Origin: Squalus acanthias
Taxonomy: Eukaryota
Reading direction: 5' to 3'
NCBI GenBank assembly: GCA_030390025.1
Contig: JASTWF010000502.1
Coordinates: forward strand, 1-64,000
DNA length: 64,000 bases
The position numbers and the translations under genes are program-made. The notes under the pieces were generated by a model, which worked only from the letters and a program-made list of their open reading frames with translations, had not been told where the DNA came from and did not search any database. Every line of letters starts with the position of its first letter. Position 1 is the first letter of the stretch. Positions 11,046-59,660 of this stretch are shown in pieces.

Positions 11046-13539
11046 TCTTTTCAACCTCGGTGATGTTCTGTGCTCTGAGCCTGGAGCCTCCACTCAGGTT
11101 TCTCAATTTAAAGAATGCAGGTCAGTCTGGTCTGGTCTCATCTCCTGTGAGATTTTATCAGCAATCATTTTATAAATAAAAATCTGAAATCTGTAGAATC
11201 TGAACAAGGGGTTCATCAGAACTTATTGCGACTGATTTATAACGGAATTCCGAGTGCAAGCCTGTCTCTTTAAGCACTGTACTCCTTCCCATAATAGCTC
11301 CCAATTGATTGGTGAATGCACCATAATTACTAGTTATCACCAGCTAGCACTGTGTTCAGGGCAGTCGCCTTGGAGATTTGAGTTTAAATAAACTACTGTT
11401 CGAGGACTGAAGGGAACCTCAGCAGCTCATATTAGGGTGGATAGGGGCAGCTCTCATCCGAGGCCTGCACGTCTATTGAGGCAATGGATTGTTGGTCGGA
11501 GATGATGCTGAACCGGGCAGTCATACAGCGCGAGGACTTTACCAGCAGCCAAACACTGTGGGGAGCTATCCCCAGCCAGGCTTTAGAGCTTGGTGAATGA
11601 CATAGAATTACGTTGAATTCACAGCACAGAAACAGGCCATTCGGCCCAACTGGTCCATGCCGGTCTTTATGCTCCACACGAGGCTCCTCCCACCTCTCTT
11701 CATCTCACCCTGACTGCATATCCTTCTATTCCTTTCTCCCTCGTGTTTATCTAGCTTCCCCTTAAATGCATCTCTGCTGTTCTCCTCAATGGGGCAGCAA
11801 GTTCCACCTACAGCCCTACAACCCTCCGAGATCTCTGCGCTCCTCCAATTCTGGCCTCTTGCGCATCCCCCGATTTCCATCGCTCCGCCATTGGTGGCCG
11901 TGCCTTCAGCTGCCTGGGCCCTGAGCTCTGGAATTCCCTCCCTAAACCTCTCCGCCTCTCTCTCCTCCTTTAAGACGCTCCTTAAAACCTACCTCTTTGA
12001 CCCAGCTTTTGGTCACCTGTCCTAATATCTCCTGATGTGGCTCGGTGTCAAATTCTGTTTGATTATGACCCTTTGAAGCACCCTGGGATGTTTTTGCTGT
12101 ATAAATACAAGTTATTGTGCTGAAGCCCTCATTACTTCCTCTTTCTCTCTATCGTGTGTCTCTCGCTGCCCTAGTGGGGTTAAAAACAATTTTTATTTGT
12201 CACTGAAGTGGTTTAATTGCATTGATCACACTATAAAAATTCAAATCAGCAGACTCATCCCTCTGCTTTTATATTGAAAATCAATAACCCGAAACTCAAG
12301 AAAATATTACAAAAGATCACCGTTCCCTTCCTCGGGATTCTGCCAACAGGAGTCACTGCAACTAAAAGAAAGCTAGAACGTGCATTTCTATAGCGCCTCT
12401 CACGACCTCAGGACGCCCCAAAGCGCTTTACAGCCAATGAAATACTTTTTGAAGTGCAGTCACTGTTGTAATGTAGGAAACGCGGCAGCCAATTTGCACA
12501 CAGCAAGATCCCACAAACAGCAATGAGATAAATGACCAGTTAAATATGTGAATGTTGGTTGAGGTATAAATATTGCCCCAGGACACCGGGGAGAACTTCC
12601 CTGTCCTTTTTCGAATAGTGCTGCAGGATTGTTTACAGCCACCTGATTTCCATTGGGCCCTTTTAATTTACCATTTAAATATTATCCCACAATTTTCCAG
12701 CAAGGAAGTTTTGCATTTATAACAACACCTCATCATATCATAGGCAAACCCAGCAGCAACATCCTGCAGGCACAGTGAGCTAAATGGAACAATGAGTTGG
12801 TTGGATACCAGCCAGGACAGCAGGATAACTCCTTGTTCTTCAAATATCGCACTGGGGAATCATTTAATTCCAGCCCCCCAACACGTTGTATTGCATTCAG
12901 AGGAGAGTTCTGAATTCAGGGGGAATGTCTCGTTTAGCAAGACGGCACTCTCGACATCGAGAGGATCGGCCTCAGAGAGTGAGCTGACATACTGGAGTGG
13001 GACTTGAACCTACCTCTGACCCAGAGGCAAGAGAACTACCAACTGGGCCAAGTGGATGACTAAAATCTTTAATGTTTTCCATGACTGCAGAACACTGCGG
13101 CCCACATGTGCACTTCCAGTAAGAGTTACGGGAGAGTTCCCACAGTTCCGAACAGTAACAGATGCTAACAGTAGCTCCGTAATGCTGTTTCCATGTCTCA
13201 CAAGGCTGCCTGTACTCTAGCAAGGGCTTATTTTATTTTCTTCCTTAATGTAATTCTGTTGTCAAATAATTTATCTTAGTCCCACGGAGCCTGTCAAACG
13301 CCAGTCAAGACAGCCGCTAATTTTTCACCAGGGGTGGCTCTGTGACAACCTGCCAGGCTGTGTGGCCTTGTTCAAATATGTAATCGTGTGACAATTTACT
13401 TTTGCATTTTTAGGGAGGGGTTTCACAGTCAGTCAAATTTGCTTCAAGGTGAAGAGACTATCTTTGCAAATGAGATTAGCTCCATAGCCTTCACTAACAG
13501 CAATCCTCCATCTCCTTTGTTCTGCAACGGTCTGTTCAT

Positions 13540-13760
13540 TAATACCTGTACTTCTTTCGATTTAGTATACTGCATTCGCTGCTCACGATGCGGTCTCCTC
13601 TACATTGGGGATACCGAACGCAGATTGGGTGACTGCTTTGTGGAACACCTCCTGAGCTTCCGGTCACCTGTCACTTTAATTCTCCGTCCCACTCCCGCTC
13701 GGACCTCTCTGTCCTCGGCCTCTGTTCCAATGAAGCTCAACGATTAGGCATTTTACAGTC
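13540..13760 (+). mobile_element. Penelope-like retroelement GIY-YIG endonuclease fragment (decayed)
   Basis: Translation TCTSFDLVYCIRCSRCGLLYIGDTERRLGDCFVEHL matches the PLE GIY-YIG signature (VY..C..C...YIG.T.R.L..RF.EH). Confidence 0.8.
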
Positions 13761-14491: not shown

Positions 14492-14528
14492 TCACAAGCT
14501 TTCGGAGCGCTGCTCCTTCGTCAGGTGA
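14492..14528 (-). ncRNA. Minimal type-I hammerhead ribozyme, Penelope-like family B
   Basis: Minus strand reads tcac-CTGACGA-a-ggagc agc gctcc-GAAA-gc-TT-gtga; palindromic AAGCTT. Confidence 0.8.
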
Positions 14529-15759
14529 CACAGGATCTTTTACGTCCACCTGAGTGAGCAGTTGAAGAGCTGCATAGGAGGGCTCCTCTCCCGAAATTGA
14601 TATTTAATTCACGCCACCAGTCTCGCAGATTCCACAGGTGCCAGTAGCCCTGTGGTACATCCACCTGGGAGAGCAGACTGGGCCTAGGTTTAACGTCTCA
14701 TCCGACAGTGCAGCGCTCCCTCAGCACTGCACTGGGAGCGTCAGCCTGGATTTTGTGCTCAAGTCTCTGGAGTGGGGCTTGATCCCACGACCTTCTGACT
14801 CAGAGGGGAGAGTGCTGCCCACTGAGCCACGGCTGACACACATAAACAGAATTTACAGCAGATCCGAAGCGACAAACCTAAAATGAAAAGAGAAAATGCT
14901 GGAAACACTCAGCACGGAGTGGGGAATCGGGCCTGAATTTTCCCTTCTCAGCTTAGCAACAATCACGCCAATTGTCACATCTTTGCTGCTGCTTTAGCTA
15001 AGATGTGTCAACTCAGCACACTACCAGAGATCAAACCTAGGCCCCTCCGGGTCTAGTATGGGCACCGAGTCAGTGCATTTAACCATTGAGCCACCAGGGG
15101 AAGCTCATCGCACCTGTTTTAACAACACCAGGTTTGAGCCAGAAGATCCCAGGGGCAATGCCGGGCCAATATTGAGGTTGCTGAAGTCAGTTAGATTAGC
15201 GGTTGGGTTCTACAATTGGCCGCAACTCTCCTGGGCTATGTAGCGGAAGGATCAGTCCGTTCTTTCAAACTCCTGATCCTCGTCGCGTCACCCCTCCCCC
15301 TGCTAGGATGTGCAAGTGGCGTGAGGCCCTCACAGGTCGAATATCCGACCAACACTAACTGCCAAGGCTTCGACATGAAGACATCGGAGGGTTATACTCC
15401 GGCGAGAGCATTGAAGAAAAAGCACAGCAGCCAATAAATAAATAATGAAGTCTATGCATTTGTTTCACTCAGTCTTGCTAGCTCAATCGATGCATGCCTA
15501 GACCATCTTTATAGGCTCTTAAAAAGATATTTCTTGATTACTGCGTCGGTCAATTTACTGAACATTGTCTAAATTGTCGTGGATACACGGTCCTCGTAAT
15601 CTGAGAGACTTGGAGACAGACGTCTGGCGCCCGTCTGTCACGATCGTTACAAAGGTTGGAGGTGCGTGTCTCCGCGGCAAAAGGAATGTGTTCTGGCACT
15701 GCGCGCGTACGCATTCCAACGCCCACGGAAACTGCTTGGGAATTTTTGCTGAGTCCGGG

Positions 15760-20723: not shown

Positions 20724-20821
20724 GCTCCTCACCAACCTGCTCAACCGTTTAAATTCACCGTGGCCGAATCCTGCGATCGAATCAAAGAGGAATTTCAGTT
20801 TTTACAGGCGCAATATCACAG
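20724..20821 (+). CDS. TLE3: TLE coding exon 2, Q domain ([33 protein letters not shown])
   Basis: ttgcag acceptor, AG|gtgggg donor, 98 nt, phase 0 to 2; Groucho Q-domain sequence. Confidence 0.95.
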
Positions 20822-21150
20822 GTGGGGGAACGTGCATCATATTCTGGCTGAGGAGTTTGTTCAGAGAAAGATCAGATCCTGTACAACTGCACAGAACGCC
20901 CCAGTCTCTCTCCCCTTCTACTCACACTTCATTAGATAATAGGCACTGTATTTTAATGATAATATTGAGCAATCAGCTATTTCTGTTTGCCTTTTGTGTA
21001 GGTCGGTGCATTCCATGTAAACAAGCTTTAAATTATTCAGAGCGTGTGATGTAAGCTCATTGTTTGGATAATGTGTTGACACAGTCTCGGTTCCCCGAAC
21101 CCCCTCAAACTGACTTTTCTCTTTTTCTCCCATTCTCCTCTCTCATCCAG

Positions 21151-21214
21151 TTTAAAGATGGAATGTGATAAACTTGCAAACGAGAAAACGGAGATGCAGC
21201 GGCACTATGTTATG
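21151..21214 (+). CDS. TLE3: TLE coding exon 3, Q domain (S-LKMECDKLANEKTEMQRHYVM)
   Basis: Polypyrimidine tract plus ccag acceptor, gtaagt donor, 64 nt; frame continuous with exon 2. Confidence 0.96.
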
Positions 21215-21868: not shown

Positions 21869-21913
21869 TATTACGAGATGTCGTATGGGCTGAATATTGA
21901 AATGCATAAACAG
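21869..21913 (+). CDS. TLE3: TLE coding exon 4, Q domain (YYEMSYGLNIEMHKQ)
   Basis: tttcag acceptor, gtaagt donor, 45 nt; invariant Groucho motif. Confidence 0.96.
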
Positions 21914-38616: not shown

Positions 38617-38655
38617 TTACAAGCTTTCGGAGCAGTTCGCTCCTTCGTCAGGTAA
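38617..38655 (-). ncRNA. Minimal type-I hammerhead ribozyme, family B variant
   Basis: Minus strand reads ttac-CTGACGA-a-ggagc gaact gctcc-GAAA-gc-TT-gtaa; stem I covaries relative to the copy at 14492. Confidence 0.8.
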
Positions 38656-41130: not shown

Positions 41131-41734
41131 CATGTGTTGTTCTGACTGGGCTGGAGTCCAGAAGCAGTGAAGTGTAAATTTGCACAAGCTACCTCTCGAT
41201 GTCCGCCAATGTTCTCCGTTCTGTGGCGTCTCCTTTTTAAACAAATTCTGTTTTGGCTGTTAAATCGTGCGATAGGGAAATTCGACTAAAGGTCTGTAGC
41301 TAAAGACCTGAAGTTGCTTTTTTTACTTCATCATCTAAATAAAAAGCAAAGAGGGGGGAAAAAAAATCTGCAAATGTTGGAAATCTGAAACAAAATCAGA
41401 AAATGCTGGGAACGCTCACAGACATTGGTCAGCATCCGTGGAAAGAAGAGGCAAGTTAACCTTTCGGGTCGAACAACATCCAGGGTGCCAGGGCTGTGGA
41501 CTCCTAGCCTGTGGGTCACGTGTATCCCTTTTGAAACTTACTGTCGAAACTGCTTCCATCGCTCTTTCAGGCAGTGCATTCCAGATCACAACAACTCTGG
41601 TTGTCTCTCTGGTAATCGAGTTCCTTATATTACCAAGAGTTGTTGGCTCTGGAAGTACCAAGCCTAGGCATTCAACAGCAATAACGTGCATTTATATAGT
41701 GCCTCTAATGTTTTTTTTAAAAAAGTCCCATGGC

Positions 41735-43333: not shown

Positions 43334-43533
43334 NNNNNNNNNNNNNNNNNNNNNNNNNNNNNNNNNNNNNNNNNNNNNNNNNNNNNNNNNNNNNNNNNNN
43401 NNNNNNNNNNNNNNNNNNNNNNNNNNNNNNNNNNNNNNNNNNNNNNNNNNNNNNNNNNNNNNNNNNNNNNNNNNNNNNNNNNNNNNNNNNNNNNNNNNNN
43501 NNNNNNNNNNNNNNNNNNNNNNNNNNNNNNNNN
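43334..43533. other. Assembly gap (200 N, probably an unsized scaffold join)
   Basis: Run of N with a round length. Confidence 1.
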
Positions 43534-44825: not shown

Positions 44826-46655
44826 CACACGAGAAGGCTGAGGGGTGACCTGATGGGTTAGACGTAGAGAAGATGTGGGGGAATCCAAAATGAGGTGCTG
44901 TAAATAGTCACTAATAAATCCAATAAGGAATTCAGAGGAAACTTCTTTACCCAGAGAGTGGTGAGAATGTGGAACTCACTACCACAGGGAGTGGTTGAGG
45001 AGAATAGCATAGATGCATTTAAGAGGAATCTAGATAAACACATGAGGGAGAAAGGAATAGAAGGATATGCTGATAGGGTGGAGCATAAACACCAGCACGG
45101 ACCAGTTGGGCCGAATGGCCTGTTTCGGTGCTGTAATTACTACGTAAAATACGAGTGGCTTCGGATTTAGTTTTTTGGGGGTCTCTGTGTTTCCTCCTAA
45201 CAGGATCTGGTCTGTTTTTTAACGGGGTGGTGAGAGAGACGGGAGTACAATTTGGGTTGGGTGGGTGGGTGGGGAGTGGGAAGAGAAATATGACCATGCT
45301 ATTCAAATATGAGGTATCCAGTGTACACGGAGCCAGCTTGCTTGCTTGCCTCAGTATTAAAATGTTATATCTTGAAGAATCTAAATTTTGCACGTTCCTC
45401 CCCACTAGAATTGGCTCAAGGATTTATTGGATACAGCTTGTGGTCCCATAGAACCATCACGCAGAACCTGAGGTAGTAATTTACACATGAGCCAAGCAGG
45501 GACATACTCGGGACTTGAGTACGTATTCTAGGCTGACCCTTCCAGTGAGGTACTGAGGGAGCGCTGCACTCTGGAGCTGACAACGCTGGACGTATTCCGG
45601 GAGGTATCGTCACATGACCCTCCCGCCATTGGTCGCCCTACACGTCCATCCTCGCGTCCCACAGCCAATCAGAAAGCGAACAGACTCTCCTTTTACCCCG
45701 ATCGGATGATTCTTGACTCAAACAACCTTTCCCCCCCCCCCCTCCCCCCACACACCGTCTCCAATATTTTCATAACTAATAAACAAAAGTGTTCAAAAGA
45801 AAATGAACAATTTTTTTTTTTTTAGTGCCCTTATAGATTTTCTCCAGGGTTTGATGTGTCTTGGGGATCAGTCTTTAATTCCTGAGGACTCCAGGACAAG
45901 CCTGGAGGGTGGGAAACCCTACTCAGGGCAGTTATCTGTGTAAATAGCCAAGCCTGGTGTGTCTGTAACTGGATTGCTCCCCGCCCCCAGTGACTCGGTC
46001 GGTGTCGGGAATCTGGAGCAAGTTTCCCATCCGACAGGAAAACACCTGTTGGGTTGAAAAAGACCTCGCCGCATTTGCTATCCAAAAAGAAATAGTTAAA
46101 AGAGGGTGGTAAAAAGATCAGAGACTTTGCATAGGCAGAGAACTGCTGGCAAACCTCAGGCAAAGTGAACACAGATGCTGGTAATTTGTGTTGGATAATG
46201 AGCAAATGCAACAGTGTGTGTGTGGAGGGACTGCTCCAGACTGCAGTGTAGTATGGGTTCCTGGGTTAGTTGGCACATACAGCCAGCCACAGTAGATTAA
46301 AGTATTGACGTTAGGAAACTGAGGGGGAAGCCTGTTGATGTACAGAGCTTGTTATCTTGGATGGAATTTTGAGAACTCACGCTTTGGAGTAATTTAGCCC
46401 ATGTGGTGGTTTTTTTTTTGTTTTACACCATGTGTTTTGAATTGGAATTGTTGTTATATAACCACAATCTCTTTATTTCTTTCCCCTCTGCTCCTGCAAG
46501 GGCCAGTTCACGCCAGGGTGCGATTCTGCTGGTGCCCACTGGTGCCTGCCCCAGGTTAGCTCGTCACTGTGGGCAGGCTATGAGAATACGAGATAACCAC
46601 AGAAAATGCTGGGAAAACTCAGCAGGCCAGGCAGCATCCGTGGAGCGAGAAACAG

Positions 46656-46693
46656 AGTTAAACGTTTCAGGTCGAAGACCTTTCGTCAGAACT
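46656..46693 (-). ncRNA. Minimal type-I hammerhead ribozyme, family A, inverted partner copy
   Basis: Minus strand reads agtt-CTGACGA-a-aggtc ttc gacct-GAAA-cg-TT-t-aact; core intact, one extra U next to the cleavage site. Confidence 0.7.
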
Positions 46694-46749
46694 GGAAAAA
46701 AGCAGGAAATGAAATAGATTTGAAGCAATTTCATTTCCTGCTTTTTTTC

Positions 46750-46788
46750 CAGTTCTGACGAAGGGTCACAGACCTGAAACGTTAACTG
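46750..46788 (+). ncRNA. Minimal type-I hammerhead ribozyme, Penelope-like family A
   Basis: cagtt-CTGACGA-a-gggtc aca gacct-GAAA-cg-TT-aactg: intact core, stem I cagtt/aactg, stem II, palindromic AACGTT in place of stem III. Confidence 0.8.
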
Positions 46789-47034
46789 TGTTTCTCTCTC
46801 CACGGATGCTGCCTGACCTGCTGAGTTTTTCCAGCGTTTTCTGTCGTTATTTCGGATTTCCAGCATCCGCAGTATTTTGCTATCGTATGGGAATACGAGG
46901 TCAGCTTAGGCCGAACCTGTTCTCCCGCTTGATGTTCGCCACATGGGAACTGTCCAGCAAGTGGTCAGGCGGGGTGGGGGGTAATCACGTGATCAGTAGG
47001 AGGAAAGCAGCCTGCTCTTTATTTCTTTCTCTAT

Positions 47035-47545
47035 ACAGTGCACAGTTTTGGTCTTCTGACCCAAGGAAAGATATATTTGCCTTGGAGGCGGTGCAACGAA
47101 TGTCCACTAGATTGATTCCTGGGATGAAAGGGTTTGTCCTATGAGGAGAGATTGAGTAGATTGAGCATATATACTTTGGAGTTTAGAAGAAGGAGGTGAT
47201 CTCATTGAAATGTATAAAATTCTTAGAGGGCTTGACAGGGTAGATGCAGGGAGGCTGTTTCCCCTGGCTGGAGTGTCTGGAACCAGGGGTCATAGTCTCA
47301 GGATAAGGGGTCGGCCTTTTAGGACTGAGATGAGGAGAAATTTCTTCACTCAGAGGGTGGTGAATCTTTGGAATTCTCTACCCCAGAGGGCTGTGGAGGC
47401 TCAGTCGTTGAGTATATTCAAGACAGAAGCACTATGGGGATCGGTCGGGGAACTGGAGATGAGGTCGATAATCAGCCACGATCTTATTGAATGGCGGAGC
47501 AGGCTCGAAAGGGCCGAATGGCCGACTCCAGCTCCTAATTCTTTG
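47035..47545 (+). mobile_element. CR1 LINE 3' end
   Basis: ORF 47210-47560 carries CR1 motifs. Confidence 0.85.
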
Positions 47546-50260: not shown

Positions 50261-50305
50261 GCACGGCATCAGTTAGCACGGCATCAGTTAGCACGGCATC
50301 AGTTA
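50261..50305. repeat. 15-bp tandem repeat, 3 copies (gcacggcatcagtta)
   Basis: Directly visible. Confidence 0.9.
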
Positions 50306-50378
50306 GTTCACGGTGCCAGTGCACGGTGTGGGATGGCCAGGTTTTTTGGAGCAGGCCGTGACGGGTTGGCAGGGAGAG

Positions 50379-51491
50379 CGGTTGCCTGTAGGCGGCGCTC
50401 TCCTGGACGCGGGACACGGGCCGCTGCCTGTAGGTGGCGCTCTCCTGGACGCGGGACCCAGGCCGCTGCCTGTAGGTGGCGCTCTCCTGGACGCGGGCCA
50501 CTGCCTGTAGGCGGCGCTCTCCTGGACGCGGGACCCAAACCGCTGCCTGTAGGTGGCGCTCTCCTGGACACGGGCCGCTCCCTGTAGGCGGCGCTCTCCT
50601 GGACGCGGGACCCAGGCCGCTGCCTGTAGGTGGCGCTCTCCTGGACGCGGGACCCAGGCCTCTGCCTGTAGGTGGCGCTCTCCTGGACGCGGGACCCAGG
50701 CCGCTGCCTGTAGGTGGCGCTCTCCTGGACACGGGCCGCTGCCTGTAGGTGGCGCTCTCCTGGACGCGGGACACGGGCCGCTGCCTGTAGGTGGCGCTCT
50801 CCTGGACGCGGGACCCAGGCCGCTGCCTGTAGGTGGCGCTCTCCTGGACGCGGGACCCAAACCGCTGCCTGTAGGTGGCGCTCTCCTGGACACGGGCCGC
50901 TGCCTGTAGGTGGCGTTCTCCTGGACATGGGCCGCTGCCTGTAGGCGGCGCTCTCCTGGACGCAGGACCCAGGCCGCTCCTGTAGGTGGCGCTCTCCTGG
51001 ACGCGGGACCTGCCTGTAGGTGGCGTTCTCCTGGACATGGGCCGCTGCCTGTAGGCGGCGCTCTCCTGGACGCAGGACCCAGGCCGCTCCCTGTAGGTGG
51101 CGCTCTCCTGGACGCGGGACACGGGCTGCTGCCTGTAGGTGGCGCTCTCCTGGACGCGGGACACGGGCCGCTGCCTGTAGGTGGCGCTCTCCTGGACGCG
51201 GGACACGGGCCGCTGCCTGTAGGTGGCGCTCTCTTGGACGCGGGACCCAGGCCGCTCCCTGTAGGTGGCGCTCTCCTGGACGCGGGACACGGGCCGCTGC
51301 CTGTAGGTGGCGCTCTCCTGGATGCGGGACACGGGCCGCTGCCTGTAGGTGGCGCTCTCCTGGACGCGGGACACGGGCCGCTGCCTGTAGGTGGCGCTCT
51401 CCTGGACGCGGGACCCGGGCCGCTGCCTGTAGGTGGCGCTCTCCTGGACGCGGGACACGGGCCGCTGCCTGTAGGCGGCGCTCTCCTGGAC
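50379..51491. repeat. GC-rich minisatellite, 42-bp unit (35-bp variants), 28 units
   Basis: Unit gccgctgcctgtaggtggcgctctcctggacgcgggacacgg; 28 occurrences of the ctgtagg core counted. Confidence 0.95.
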
Positions 51492-51816
51492 GGTGGGCCC
51501 AGAATGAAAGGTCTTTGAGAAAGAGGGTCGGCGGGGGGAGATGGAGAGATGATTGAAATGGTGCAATTGATGAATGATTTCAATCAACGTTAAGTTATAT
51601 TGAGTGATGGTGTTCATTCTCTCCGAGAAAAAGATCACATAGAATATTTTAGAGTTTGATTTTTCTTTTAAGGGTAAGAGTGTATGTGTTCGGGTTAACT
51701 TGCTTTTAAGGGGTCATTGTGTTTTTTTTAGCGGGGGGTTATTGGGATGCAAACGACGGGAGTTAAGTCTTAATAATTTAACGTCTGAAATCTTTTTTTT
51801 CTTTTTCATTTCCCAG

Positions 51817-54890: not shown

Positions 54891-55095
54891 CAGCAACAAC
54901 TGCAGGCCCAGCACCTCTCCCACACCCACGCTCCTCCTGTCCAGCTGCCGCCCCACCCCTCTGGTCTGCAACCGCCAGGAATCCCCCCGGTCACCGGCAG
55001 CACCTCCGGGCTCCTAGCACTTTCCAGCGCCCTGGGCAGCCAGGCCCACCTGTCGGTGAAGGACGAGAAGAACCACCACGAGTTGGACCACAGAG
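54891..55095 (+). CDS. TLE3: TLE coding exon 7, GP domain ([69 protein letters not shown])
   Basis: ccacag acceptor, G|gtgag donor, 205 nt; closely matches the TLE3 GP domain. Confidence 0.95.
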
Positions 55096-57774: not shown

Positions 57775-58310
57775 TGGCCGCCCGGGCCCGGCTTCCCGCC
57801 CCGCCCCGGGCCCGCAATCCCGCCCGCCCCGCCCCGGGCCCACCGTCCCGCCCCGGGCCAGCAGTCCCACCCCGCCCCGCCCCAGGCCCGCTGTCCCGCC
57901 CCGGGCCAGCAGTCCCACCCCACCCCCGCCCGCCGGCCCGCCGTCCCGCCCCGGGCCAGCAGTCCCACCCCACCCCACGGCCCGCCGTCCCGCCCCGGGC
58001 CAGCAGTCCCACCCCGCCCCGCCCCGGGCCCGCCGTCCCGCCCCGCCCCGGGCCAGCAATCCCGCCCGGGCCCGCCGTCCCGCCCCAGGCCAGCAATCCC
58101 ACCCCGCCCCGGGCCCGCGGTCCCGTCCCACCATCCCGCCCCGGGCCCGCCGTCCCACCCCGCCCCGGGCCAGCAATCCCGCCCCGGGCCAGCAATCCCG
58201 TCCCGCCCCGCCCCGGGCCAGCAGCCCCGCCCCGGGCCAGCAATCCCGCCCCACCCCACCCTACCCTCGCCATTCCACCCTCGCCGTCCCGCCCGCCCCG
58301 GGCCCGTCTA
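57775..58310. repeat. C-rich low-complexity minisatellite (cccgccccgggcc / cagcagtccc modules)
   Basis: Directly visible; extreme C/G strand skew. Confidence 0.9.
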
Positions 58311-58453
58311 GCCCGTGTTCAGCAGCAGAACTCTTCAGCCAAGTGCATCAAGGACTTTAAGCATCAAGGACGAGTGATTTCTTGGAGTGAAACAGATGAT
58401 TGGATTTAAAAGGCAAGACACTGGGAATCTGAATTTAAAGAGAGAGCGAAACG

Positions 58454-58610
58454 CTGGAAACACTCGGCTCAGACAGCGTCTGTGGAGCGGGAGGAAGGTA
58501 GGGTCAACGTTGCAGGTCAGCTCCGCCTCTGAGCAGAGGTCACTGACCTGAAGCGTTGACCCTACCTTCCCCCTTCCACAGATGCTGCCTGACCGGCCGA
58601 GTGTTTCCAG
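58454..58610. mobile_element. Inverted (palindromic) pair of Penelope-like family A terminal repeats; hammerhead decayed
   Basis: Arms 58454-58520 and 58543-58610 are reverse complements and homologous to the tail at 46776-46835. Confidence 0.7.
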
Positions 58611-59660
58611 ATAGTTGGATTCGTTGCCCTGGCGTGGCGGGGTTGCCCGAGGAGGCGTCTGGTGCTTCAGTGGGACTGGCGGTGTCTGTGGCGGGACTCG
58701 GCGGGGAAAGCATCTCGTCTTCAACTGCCTTCATTTTCTTGAAATGTACTTTCACGGCTGAAGAAGTTTCCTTTTATGTGAAAACATTTTCCCCTCTATT
58801 TTGGCAACTGGAGCATGATCTAAACAAGGTTTCACTGTGTCTAAAATCCGTAGGGAACGCTTGAGTCCAATGGCAGTTTGTGATTTACTTTTCCTTTCGC
58901 TCAATTTTTCTCTTTAGCCTCTCTTTACTCATTCTTTTTTTTTCTCTCTTGCTCTGTCTGTCTGTCTGTCTCTCTGTCTGTGCGTGTGTCTCTCTCTCTG
59001 TTTTTCTGTCTCTCTCTGTCTGTCTCTCTCTACCTTCCCCCCCCCCTCTCCTGTGAGTGCTCTCTGCAAGGAGGGACAGCTTATTAAAATGAAACTACAT
59101 GGGGAGATTAGCAATGCCTTAATTTCATTAGAGTGAGCACAAACTGGCCTCCTTCACCCCACTGACTGCTTAGGATGAGGATTTGCCCGTTCCTTGCCTG
59201 AGACCGACGCAGGAATACAAATGGTGAATTGTGCTTTGCCTGTTCATTTACTGGCTGCGTAAGCCGTTTATTAGATGGGCTTAAAGCATTCAGATGGCTC
59301 GTACTGCCAATGCAAGTTTGTGTTTCATGTGAGTGAGTTCTCTGAATACGTGCAGTCAAGTCTGAAGAACTAAAAATCCCCCTGTGATTAAGAAGCCATT
59401 TTATCCTTGATCAGACTCCTCTATTATCCAGAGGCAGCTGACACTATGCATTTGGCCTGAGTTATTGCTGTGTGACAAGCTGACGTTTAACTGCTGAGGG
59501 GCCTTTTTCTTTCCCAATCATTCATTTTCTCGCCAATTTCCTCTCTTGTCCCCCGCTCCTAAAATTGACTCCTTGCTGTGGTGTAGCTTCACGGATCTAG
59601 TTGTCCTCTTGATAATACGGCCACGCAACAACACTGCATTTATATAGCGCCTTTAATGTA

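Follow-up and report, generated by a model that had tools for sequence, protein, structure and literature searches.

The palindrome that lies within the TLE gene is a 293-bp insertion, bounded by a 14-bp target-site duplication (TSD) and absent from the same site in three related organisms; in all likelihood it consists of pLTR copies of a Penelope-like element (PLE), and the hammerhead motifs that it carries are likely to be inert, a reading to which, taken as a whole, we give a probability of about 0.85. As an element of the host it deserves little weight, being one young copy of an abundant repeat whose layout was published between 2013 and 2021. Its value is that of a clean record of the way in which PLEs integrate, since the filled and the empty alleles together fix the exact positions of the nicks, and the asymmetry of the two arms allows fold-back to be told apart from two-ended priming.

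Boundaries of the insertion and the empty site

The insert occupies positions 46593-46885 of the window, by which we mean the whole stretch of 64 kb that was analysed, and lies between the two copies of the TSD (Table 1). Since 55 of the 2955 comparable boxes across the window reach an identity of at least 13/14 as well, the TSD call rests on the empty site and not on the match statistic. At two solo copies of the same repeat (9994-10124 and 41363-41470) a TSD was also sought, and the best candidates reached 9/14, which is the background level.

The empty site was read from contigs only, belonging to 4 of 21 sequencing runs and aligned on 46000-47035; three of these runs (X3, X9 and X15, from two studies) represent other, related organisms, and X1 is the run closest to the window. 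All three related runs (3/3) carry the empty allele, with a single contig crossing the site in each: the contig covers 46002-46578 and passes directly to 46886, with contiguous positions in its own record (290-871, then 872-1021 in X15; 339-922, then 923-1037 in X3; 51-200, then 201-779 in X9, on the minus strand). The 307 bp that the relatives lack correspond to the 293-bp insert plus one copy of the TSD. The first-pass annotation, made from the letters of the window, had named absence from the orthologous site in related species among the outcomes that would make the palindrome a neutral PLE remnant, and in each of the three it is absent there. The filled allele is seen in the window alone, X1 having no coverage of the junctions (46525-46592 and the right flank are almost uncovered). 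The flanks differ from those of the relatives by 4.1-6.1%, and the simplest reading is that the insertion postdates the split from these three organisms.

Table 1. Coordinates of the insertion and of its parts within the window
Feature	Position	Strand	Remarks
Left TSD copy	46579-46592	+	13/14 identical to 46886-46899; single in the empty allele
Left repeat copy, tail-less, 5′-truncated, 136 nt	46593-46728	-	the 12-nt centre is the upstream part of this copy
Left minimal hammerhead	46655-46694	-	core letters present; fails the descriptor
Single-copy centre (hairpin loop), element-derived	46716-46727	-	loose ends of family contigs
Right repeat copy, tail-bearing, 5′-truncated, 158 nt	46728-46885	+	sequence comparison within the window
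Right minimal hammerhead	46750-46788	+	passes the descriptor; predicted cut 46783/46784
3′ tail, 31-35 nt, right arm only	46851-46885	+	also in solo copies 9994-10124 and 41363-41470
Right TSD copy	46886-46899	+	TSD comparison and empty allele

Anatomy of the hairpin

The long inverted repeat of this region folds as one hairpin, with a minimum free energy of -228.5 kcal/mol (z -25) that none of 100 shuffles equals. It had been described as a palindrome of ~280 bp at 46584..46882, and while the palindrome is real, its bounds are those of the insert given above, given that the outer 8 nt of the left arm as then drawn are target DNA and that the right copy extends by 31-35 nt as a tail. What is found between the TSDs are two 5′-truncated copies of a repeat placed head to head, so that their 5′ ends meet centrally and their 3′ ends adjoin the TSDs. 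The 12 nt formerly taken as a spacer are in fact upstream sequence of the left repeat copy, as the loose ends of family contigs extend this centre in the orientation of that copy.

Nor are the arms the near-perfect reverse complements that they had been called: they are 90% alike, with 12 differences in 124 columns, made up of 10 substitutions and 2 indels. The substitutions (10/122, or 8.2%) may be set against the 4.1-6.1% measured between species in the flanks (Fisher P 0.06-0.42), and the changes between arms that preserve pairing as G.U, 3 of 4 transitions, are not above chance (P 0.31). The pairing of the hairpin shows no sign of being kept, and decays at least at the rate of the flanks.

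The repeat family

The repeat is very abundant, between 24,557 and 71,082 contigs per run aligning on the stretch with nearly all of their depth on the arms, and it has five further loci within the 64-kb window, one of which is a second and older head-to-head pair at ~58407-58610 (58393-58621). The latter has its tail on the left arm, a degenerate core, and a candidate TSD of 12/14 that shares its first 3 nt with the end of the tail-less arm; as in 46593-46885, its centre belongs to the tail-less arm, and both this centre and the tail-less end differ from those of the younger hairpin. Among the contig joints, 12 of the 15 listed (there are 457 more) link a place in the left arm to a place in the right arm, skipping 62-153 nt, which suggests that there are other hairpins with other centres; clipping of the alignments may shape the joint places.

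The collections scanned yielded no member of the family: the viral contigs gave 0 matches to the family, and in metagenomes a looser pattern found 16 loci (a stricter one, 0), of which 15 gave BLAST rows against the arm, with alignments of no more than 20-24 nt, and these were dropped as chance. In the window itself, 13538-13744 (+) resembles a GIY-YIG domain in decay, with a CxxC motif, a weak match (Pfam E 0.24) and another repeat behind it; this fragment is perhaps the remnant of a Penelope-like endonuclease, and is not joined to the hammerhead repeat. Self-BLAST also reveals fold-back structures of unrelated repeats at 4679-5061 and 8728-9053.

Hammerhead motifs

Each arm holds one match to the pattern CTGAYGA...GAAAC, on the minus strand at 46664-46689 and on the plus strand at 46755-46780, and the rest of the window holds none; taken alone the pattern is weak, as two matches are also obtained in 7 of 100 shuffles. 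A descriptor of the minimal hammerhead for RNAmotif, coded from Fig. S7 of PMC4209133, matches at three places, which are the right arm (+) and, on the minus strand, two copies of a different repeat; 60 shuffled versions of the window give 0 matches. These two copies (14492-14530 and 38617-38655) have G-C at 10.1-11.1, and the second is found in the TLE intron, in antisense.

The right hammerhead comprises a stem I of 5 bp, CUGACGA with one extra A, a stem II of 5 bp and GAAACGUU, and lacks helix III; the fifth pair of its stem I, at 46788, is missing from ~95% of the depth of the family. The descriptor places the cut exactly where it had been predicted, after the GUU at 46783 of the + copy. 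In the left hammerhead, an extra U right after the GUU triplet displaces stem I, and for this reason the arm fails the descriptor. This corrects the earlier description, which had given each arm an intact core with stems I and II. The G10.1-C11.1 pair is absent in both, being G.U in the right arm and A-U in the left; in the published consensus, however, this pair is a feature of >80% of motifs and not obligatory, G.U and A-U each appear in single rows of Fig. S3, and GUU triplets are common among the PLE motifs of that figure (PMC4209133), so that neither the triplet nor the pair at 10.1-11.1 is a defect per se.

As for the check that had been proposed, by Rfam or by a minimal descriptor, its two halves diverge: the Rfam hammerhead families give no match at E up to 10 in the 3.5 kb and the 76 nt searched, and the descriptor accepts the right arm. 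A second copy on the + strand that passes the descriptor, with which a dimeric fold could be formed, was not found within the window (1 of the 3 matches is on +).

The TLE gene and the fate of the ribozyme in its pre-mRNA

Pfam TLE_N identifies two exons of TLE on +, 20724-20819 (E 8e-10) and 21149-21211 (E 3e-9), which the TLE1 chains of PDB support, and motifs point to further exon-like stretches at ~20447, 21869-21913 and 54891-55093, the last of them without a Pfam match. Because these exons and exon-like stretches flank it on +, the site of the insert is intronic and the + hammerhead is on the pre-mRNA strand, which bears out the placement given by the first-pass annotation. Two further exons, of the TLE Q domain, would be expected in 21914-54890 and were not found there by motifs or by enumeration of AG/GT; the window has N gaps at 30755-31151 and 43334-43533, which may hide them.

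Several other features of this span can be recorded. At 46470-46560 (+), a pyrimidine tract, an AG (46499-46500) and a GT (46555) frame 54 nt that resemble an exon, at a distance of 38 nt before the insert; a 7-nt insertion that the relatives carry in this stretch rules it out as a conserved coding exon. GC-rich, minisatellite-like arrays at 50300-51500 and 57780-58320 contain long spurious open frames. Throughout the TLE span (20400-64000), both solo copies of hammerhead repeats (38651 and 41363-41470) are antisense and both sense copies lie in hairpins, numbers that are too small for a test and that hint at a question of strand bias at the level of the genome.

As the arms are head to head, the antisense arm is transcribed before the ribozyme on either strand, and as the two hammerheads are on opposite strands, they are unable to dimerise in cis; hammerheads carried on both strands of a palindrome can therefore serve neither as a dimer nor as a switch. 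In the TLE pre-mRNA, the antisense arm would be made first and would capture the emerging ribozyme arm. Folding models, which ignore proteins, agree with this prediction: the hammerhead fold (stems I and II forced, core open) is computed to be 48.5 kcal/mol worse than the free ensemble, the probability of the stem II pairs is ~1e-11, and of the nucleotides of the right arm that have emerged in five prefixes of the transcript, 33/33, 45/48, 59/63, 68/73 and 116/123 are paired with the left arm. Folded by itself, the right arm is still more stable, by 3.3 kcal/mol, in a structure in which letters of the core are paired. A true competition between the ribozyme fold and the hairpin, as had been supposed, is not what these energies and this order of synthesis describe. 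Since the predicted hairpin would capture the ribozyme arm, no cleavage is to be expected in the TLE pre-mRNA, and the hammerhead motifs are likely to be inert passengers.

Mode of integration

A possible course can be proposed for the insertion. The endonuclease of the element would have nicked both strands of the target 14 nt apart, and each nick would have primed its own cDNA on the element RNA, one of the cDNAs starting at the end of the tail and the other ~35 nt further in, at a point where the RNA could pair with the end of the target; both would have stopped early, to be subsequently joined in the middle. The 3′ end of each arm adjoins a target end, as expected of target-primed reverse transcription from both nicks. 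The top-strand target end at 46585-46592 pairs in 7 of 8 positions (one of them G.U) with the element RNA at 46851-46858, and it is exactly at this pairing site that the left arm stops; among 151 8-mers, no other one pairs in this way (binomial P 0.006). Furthermore, each of the window's two hairpins has its single-copy centre on the tail-less arm, and the fold-back of a tail-primed cDNA fits poorly with this, because it would leave the centre on the tail arm. Two-ended priming is thus favoured by the stop of the tail-less arm at the 7/8 pairing and by the centre on that same arm. The arms also diverge slightly more than expected (P 0.03-0.21), which the use of two different templates could explain.

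Two published accounts stand against this: self-priming on an antisense template is preferred in PMC3846280, contrary to two-ended priming, and reverse transcription is described as starting in vitro without homology to the cut DNA in PMC11167929, contrary to a start guided by pairing. Two-ended priming, if true, would therefore depart from both. Considered by itself, and drawn from two loci, the proposed mechanism of insertion has in our judgement about an even chance of being correct; the broader proposal, that hairpins of this kind are a fossil record of PLEs priming at both ends of the target, in which the tail-less arm starts where the 3′ end of the target pairs, is more tentative, and we would place it somewhat below even.

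Alternative explanations

Other origins can be conceived for the palindrome. That it is an artefact of the assembly, or of fold-back in a long read, is the least probable of all and can practically be set aside: the filled allele lacks, it is true, an independent sighting in the four runs examined, but the arms differ in 12 of 124 columns, one base differs between the TSD copies, and the empty site of the relatives matches the TSD to the base. The arm divergence, somewhat above what is expected after the split (P 0.03-0.21), leaves some probability to an older insertion with precise loss between the TSDs in the relatives, or for arms that were unlike from birth, against which stands the simpler reading of an insertion after the split. 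A MITE-like non-autonomous unit, moving whole and with the arms as its terminal inverted repeats, would account for inverted arms between flanking TSDs and for the many contigs that connect the left arm with the right (12 of the 15 joints listed); DNA transposons of this kind have symmetric terminal inverted repeats with fixed ends and a fixed centre, and here, in contrast, the tail is on one arm, solo arms are present in the window, the 62-153 nt skipped by the joints suggest that centres vary from copy to copy, and the second hairpin differs in its centre as well as in its tail-less end, so that we hold such a unit to be quite improbable. The insertion of PLE copies remains the origin that we prefer.

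With respect to function, the first-pass annotation had offered several outcomes, among them a self-silenced or switchable element of cleavage, which in its strongest form would be a ribozyme that regulates the TLE pre-mRNA and has been domesticated like that of RECK. The right arm shares the strand of the pre-mRNA and matches the descriptor, its stem I has the fifth pair that most of the family lacks, and amniotes do have conserved intronic hammerheads (PMC6155905); nevertheless, the site is empty in 3/3 relatives, the barrier of 48.5 kcal/mol and the co-transcriptional capture in 5/5 prefixes oppose the fold, there is neither a helix III nor a second + strand copy passing the descriptor in the window, the lone arm also prefers to pair its core letters, and the arms are not conserved relative to the flanks. 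A domesticated hammerhead of the RECK type would be conserved at the orthologous site, and this one is not; such a role is very improbable indeed. A neutral insertion whose intronic duplex of ~120 bp happens to undergo ADAR editing or dicing, to some effect on TLE splicing, is compatible with the origin preferred here and is less remote, if still unlikely. In vertebrates, inverted repeats within introns are known to be edited, the duplex is very stable, and Rfam models of miRNAs match it by shape; against this, all of these matches are below the gathering score (the best with 47.9 of 82 bits), the insertion is restricted to one lineage, and the G.U-preserving changes (3/4 transitions, P 0.31) do not favour it. 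The same matches reflect the shape of the hairpin, and on their scores a pre-miRNA was rejected. It is the remaining outcome, that the element is simply inert, which the empty site (3/3) and the predicted hairpin-locked fold favour.

Comparison with known systems

The PLE origin and the minimal type-I hammerhead proposed in the first-pass annotation are upheld by the descriptor match of the right arm, the tail, the head-to-head layout and the TSD. Four of the five characters of a PLE (EN+) are present, namely a hammerhead in a terminal repeat, an inverted 5′-truncated copy, a tail of 31-35 nt, and a TSD with its empty site; as to the fifth, an ORF for RT/GIY-YIG, the insert has no ORF, and the weak fragment at 13538-13744 (E 0.24) is unlinked. 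A published account of this repeat was not found in the openly readable literature on sharks, Penelope or ribozymes, and the main text of PMC4209133 contains 0 occurrences of “shark” and of “milii.”

Hammerhead-bearing retroelements of other types are less similar. Non-LTR retrozymes, which have been reported in one chondrichthyan genome, share with this repeat a non-autonomous, pLTR-related, HHR-bearing nature, and are head-to-tail tandem units with at least 2 HHRs (bioRxiv 10.64898/2026.07.22.740005); here only a head-to-head pair exists, and a retrozyme was accordingly rejected. The hammerheads of RECK, CTCL and DTNB in amniotes are likewise type-I motifs in an intron and on the sense strand (PMC6155905), whereas that of TLE is unconserved at the orthologous site, minimal, without a match in Rfam, and buried in a hairpin.

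The minimal type-I hammerheads of metazoan PLEs have in common with those described here CUGANGA with an extra nucleotide, the absence of helix III, GAAACGUU, a palindromic 15.2-16.2, the GUU triplet, and pairs on opposite strands, such pairs, 100-700 bp apart, being known since 2014; the differences are the G.U or A-U at 10.1-11.1 and the broken left copy. In that study the monomer of the minimal hammerhead shows no cleavage, and dimers little (PMC4209133). In PAc, the Poseidon element of Anolis carolinensis, two start sites of reverse transcription bound the tail and both target strands are cleaved and extended, as in the course proposed above; its HHR cleaves only when the protein is present and is not needed for insertion in vitro, and none of the RNA-seq reads had an end at the site of the ribozyme (PMC11167929).

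The nearest relatives are the PLE insertions with an inverted pLTR, whose palindromes are mostly head to head and have a TSD (PMC3846280), and in which an inverted 5′-truncated copy accompanies a tail of 30-40 bp at one end (PMC8557442). Head-to-head 5′-truncated copies, a one-ended tail and a TSD are thus shared with these insertions; the present one differs in being reduced to two stumps with no ORF, in its TSD of 14 bp as opposed to 8-10 bp (PMC3846280), and in a single-copy centre that belongs to the tail-less arm, unlike what simple fold-back would be expected to leave.
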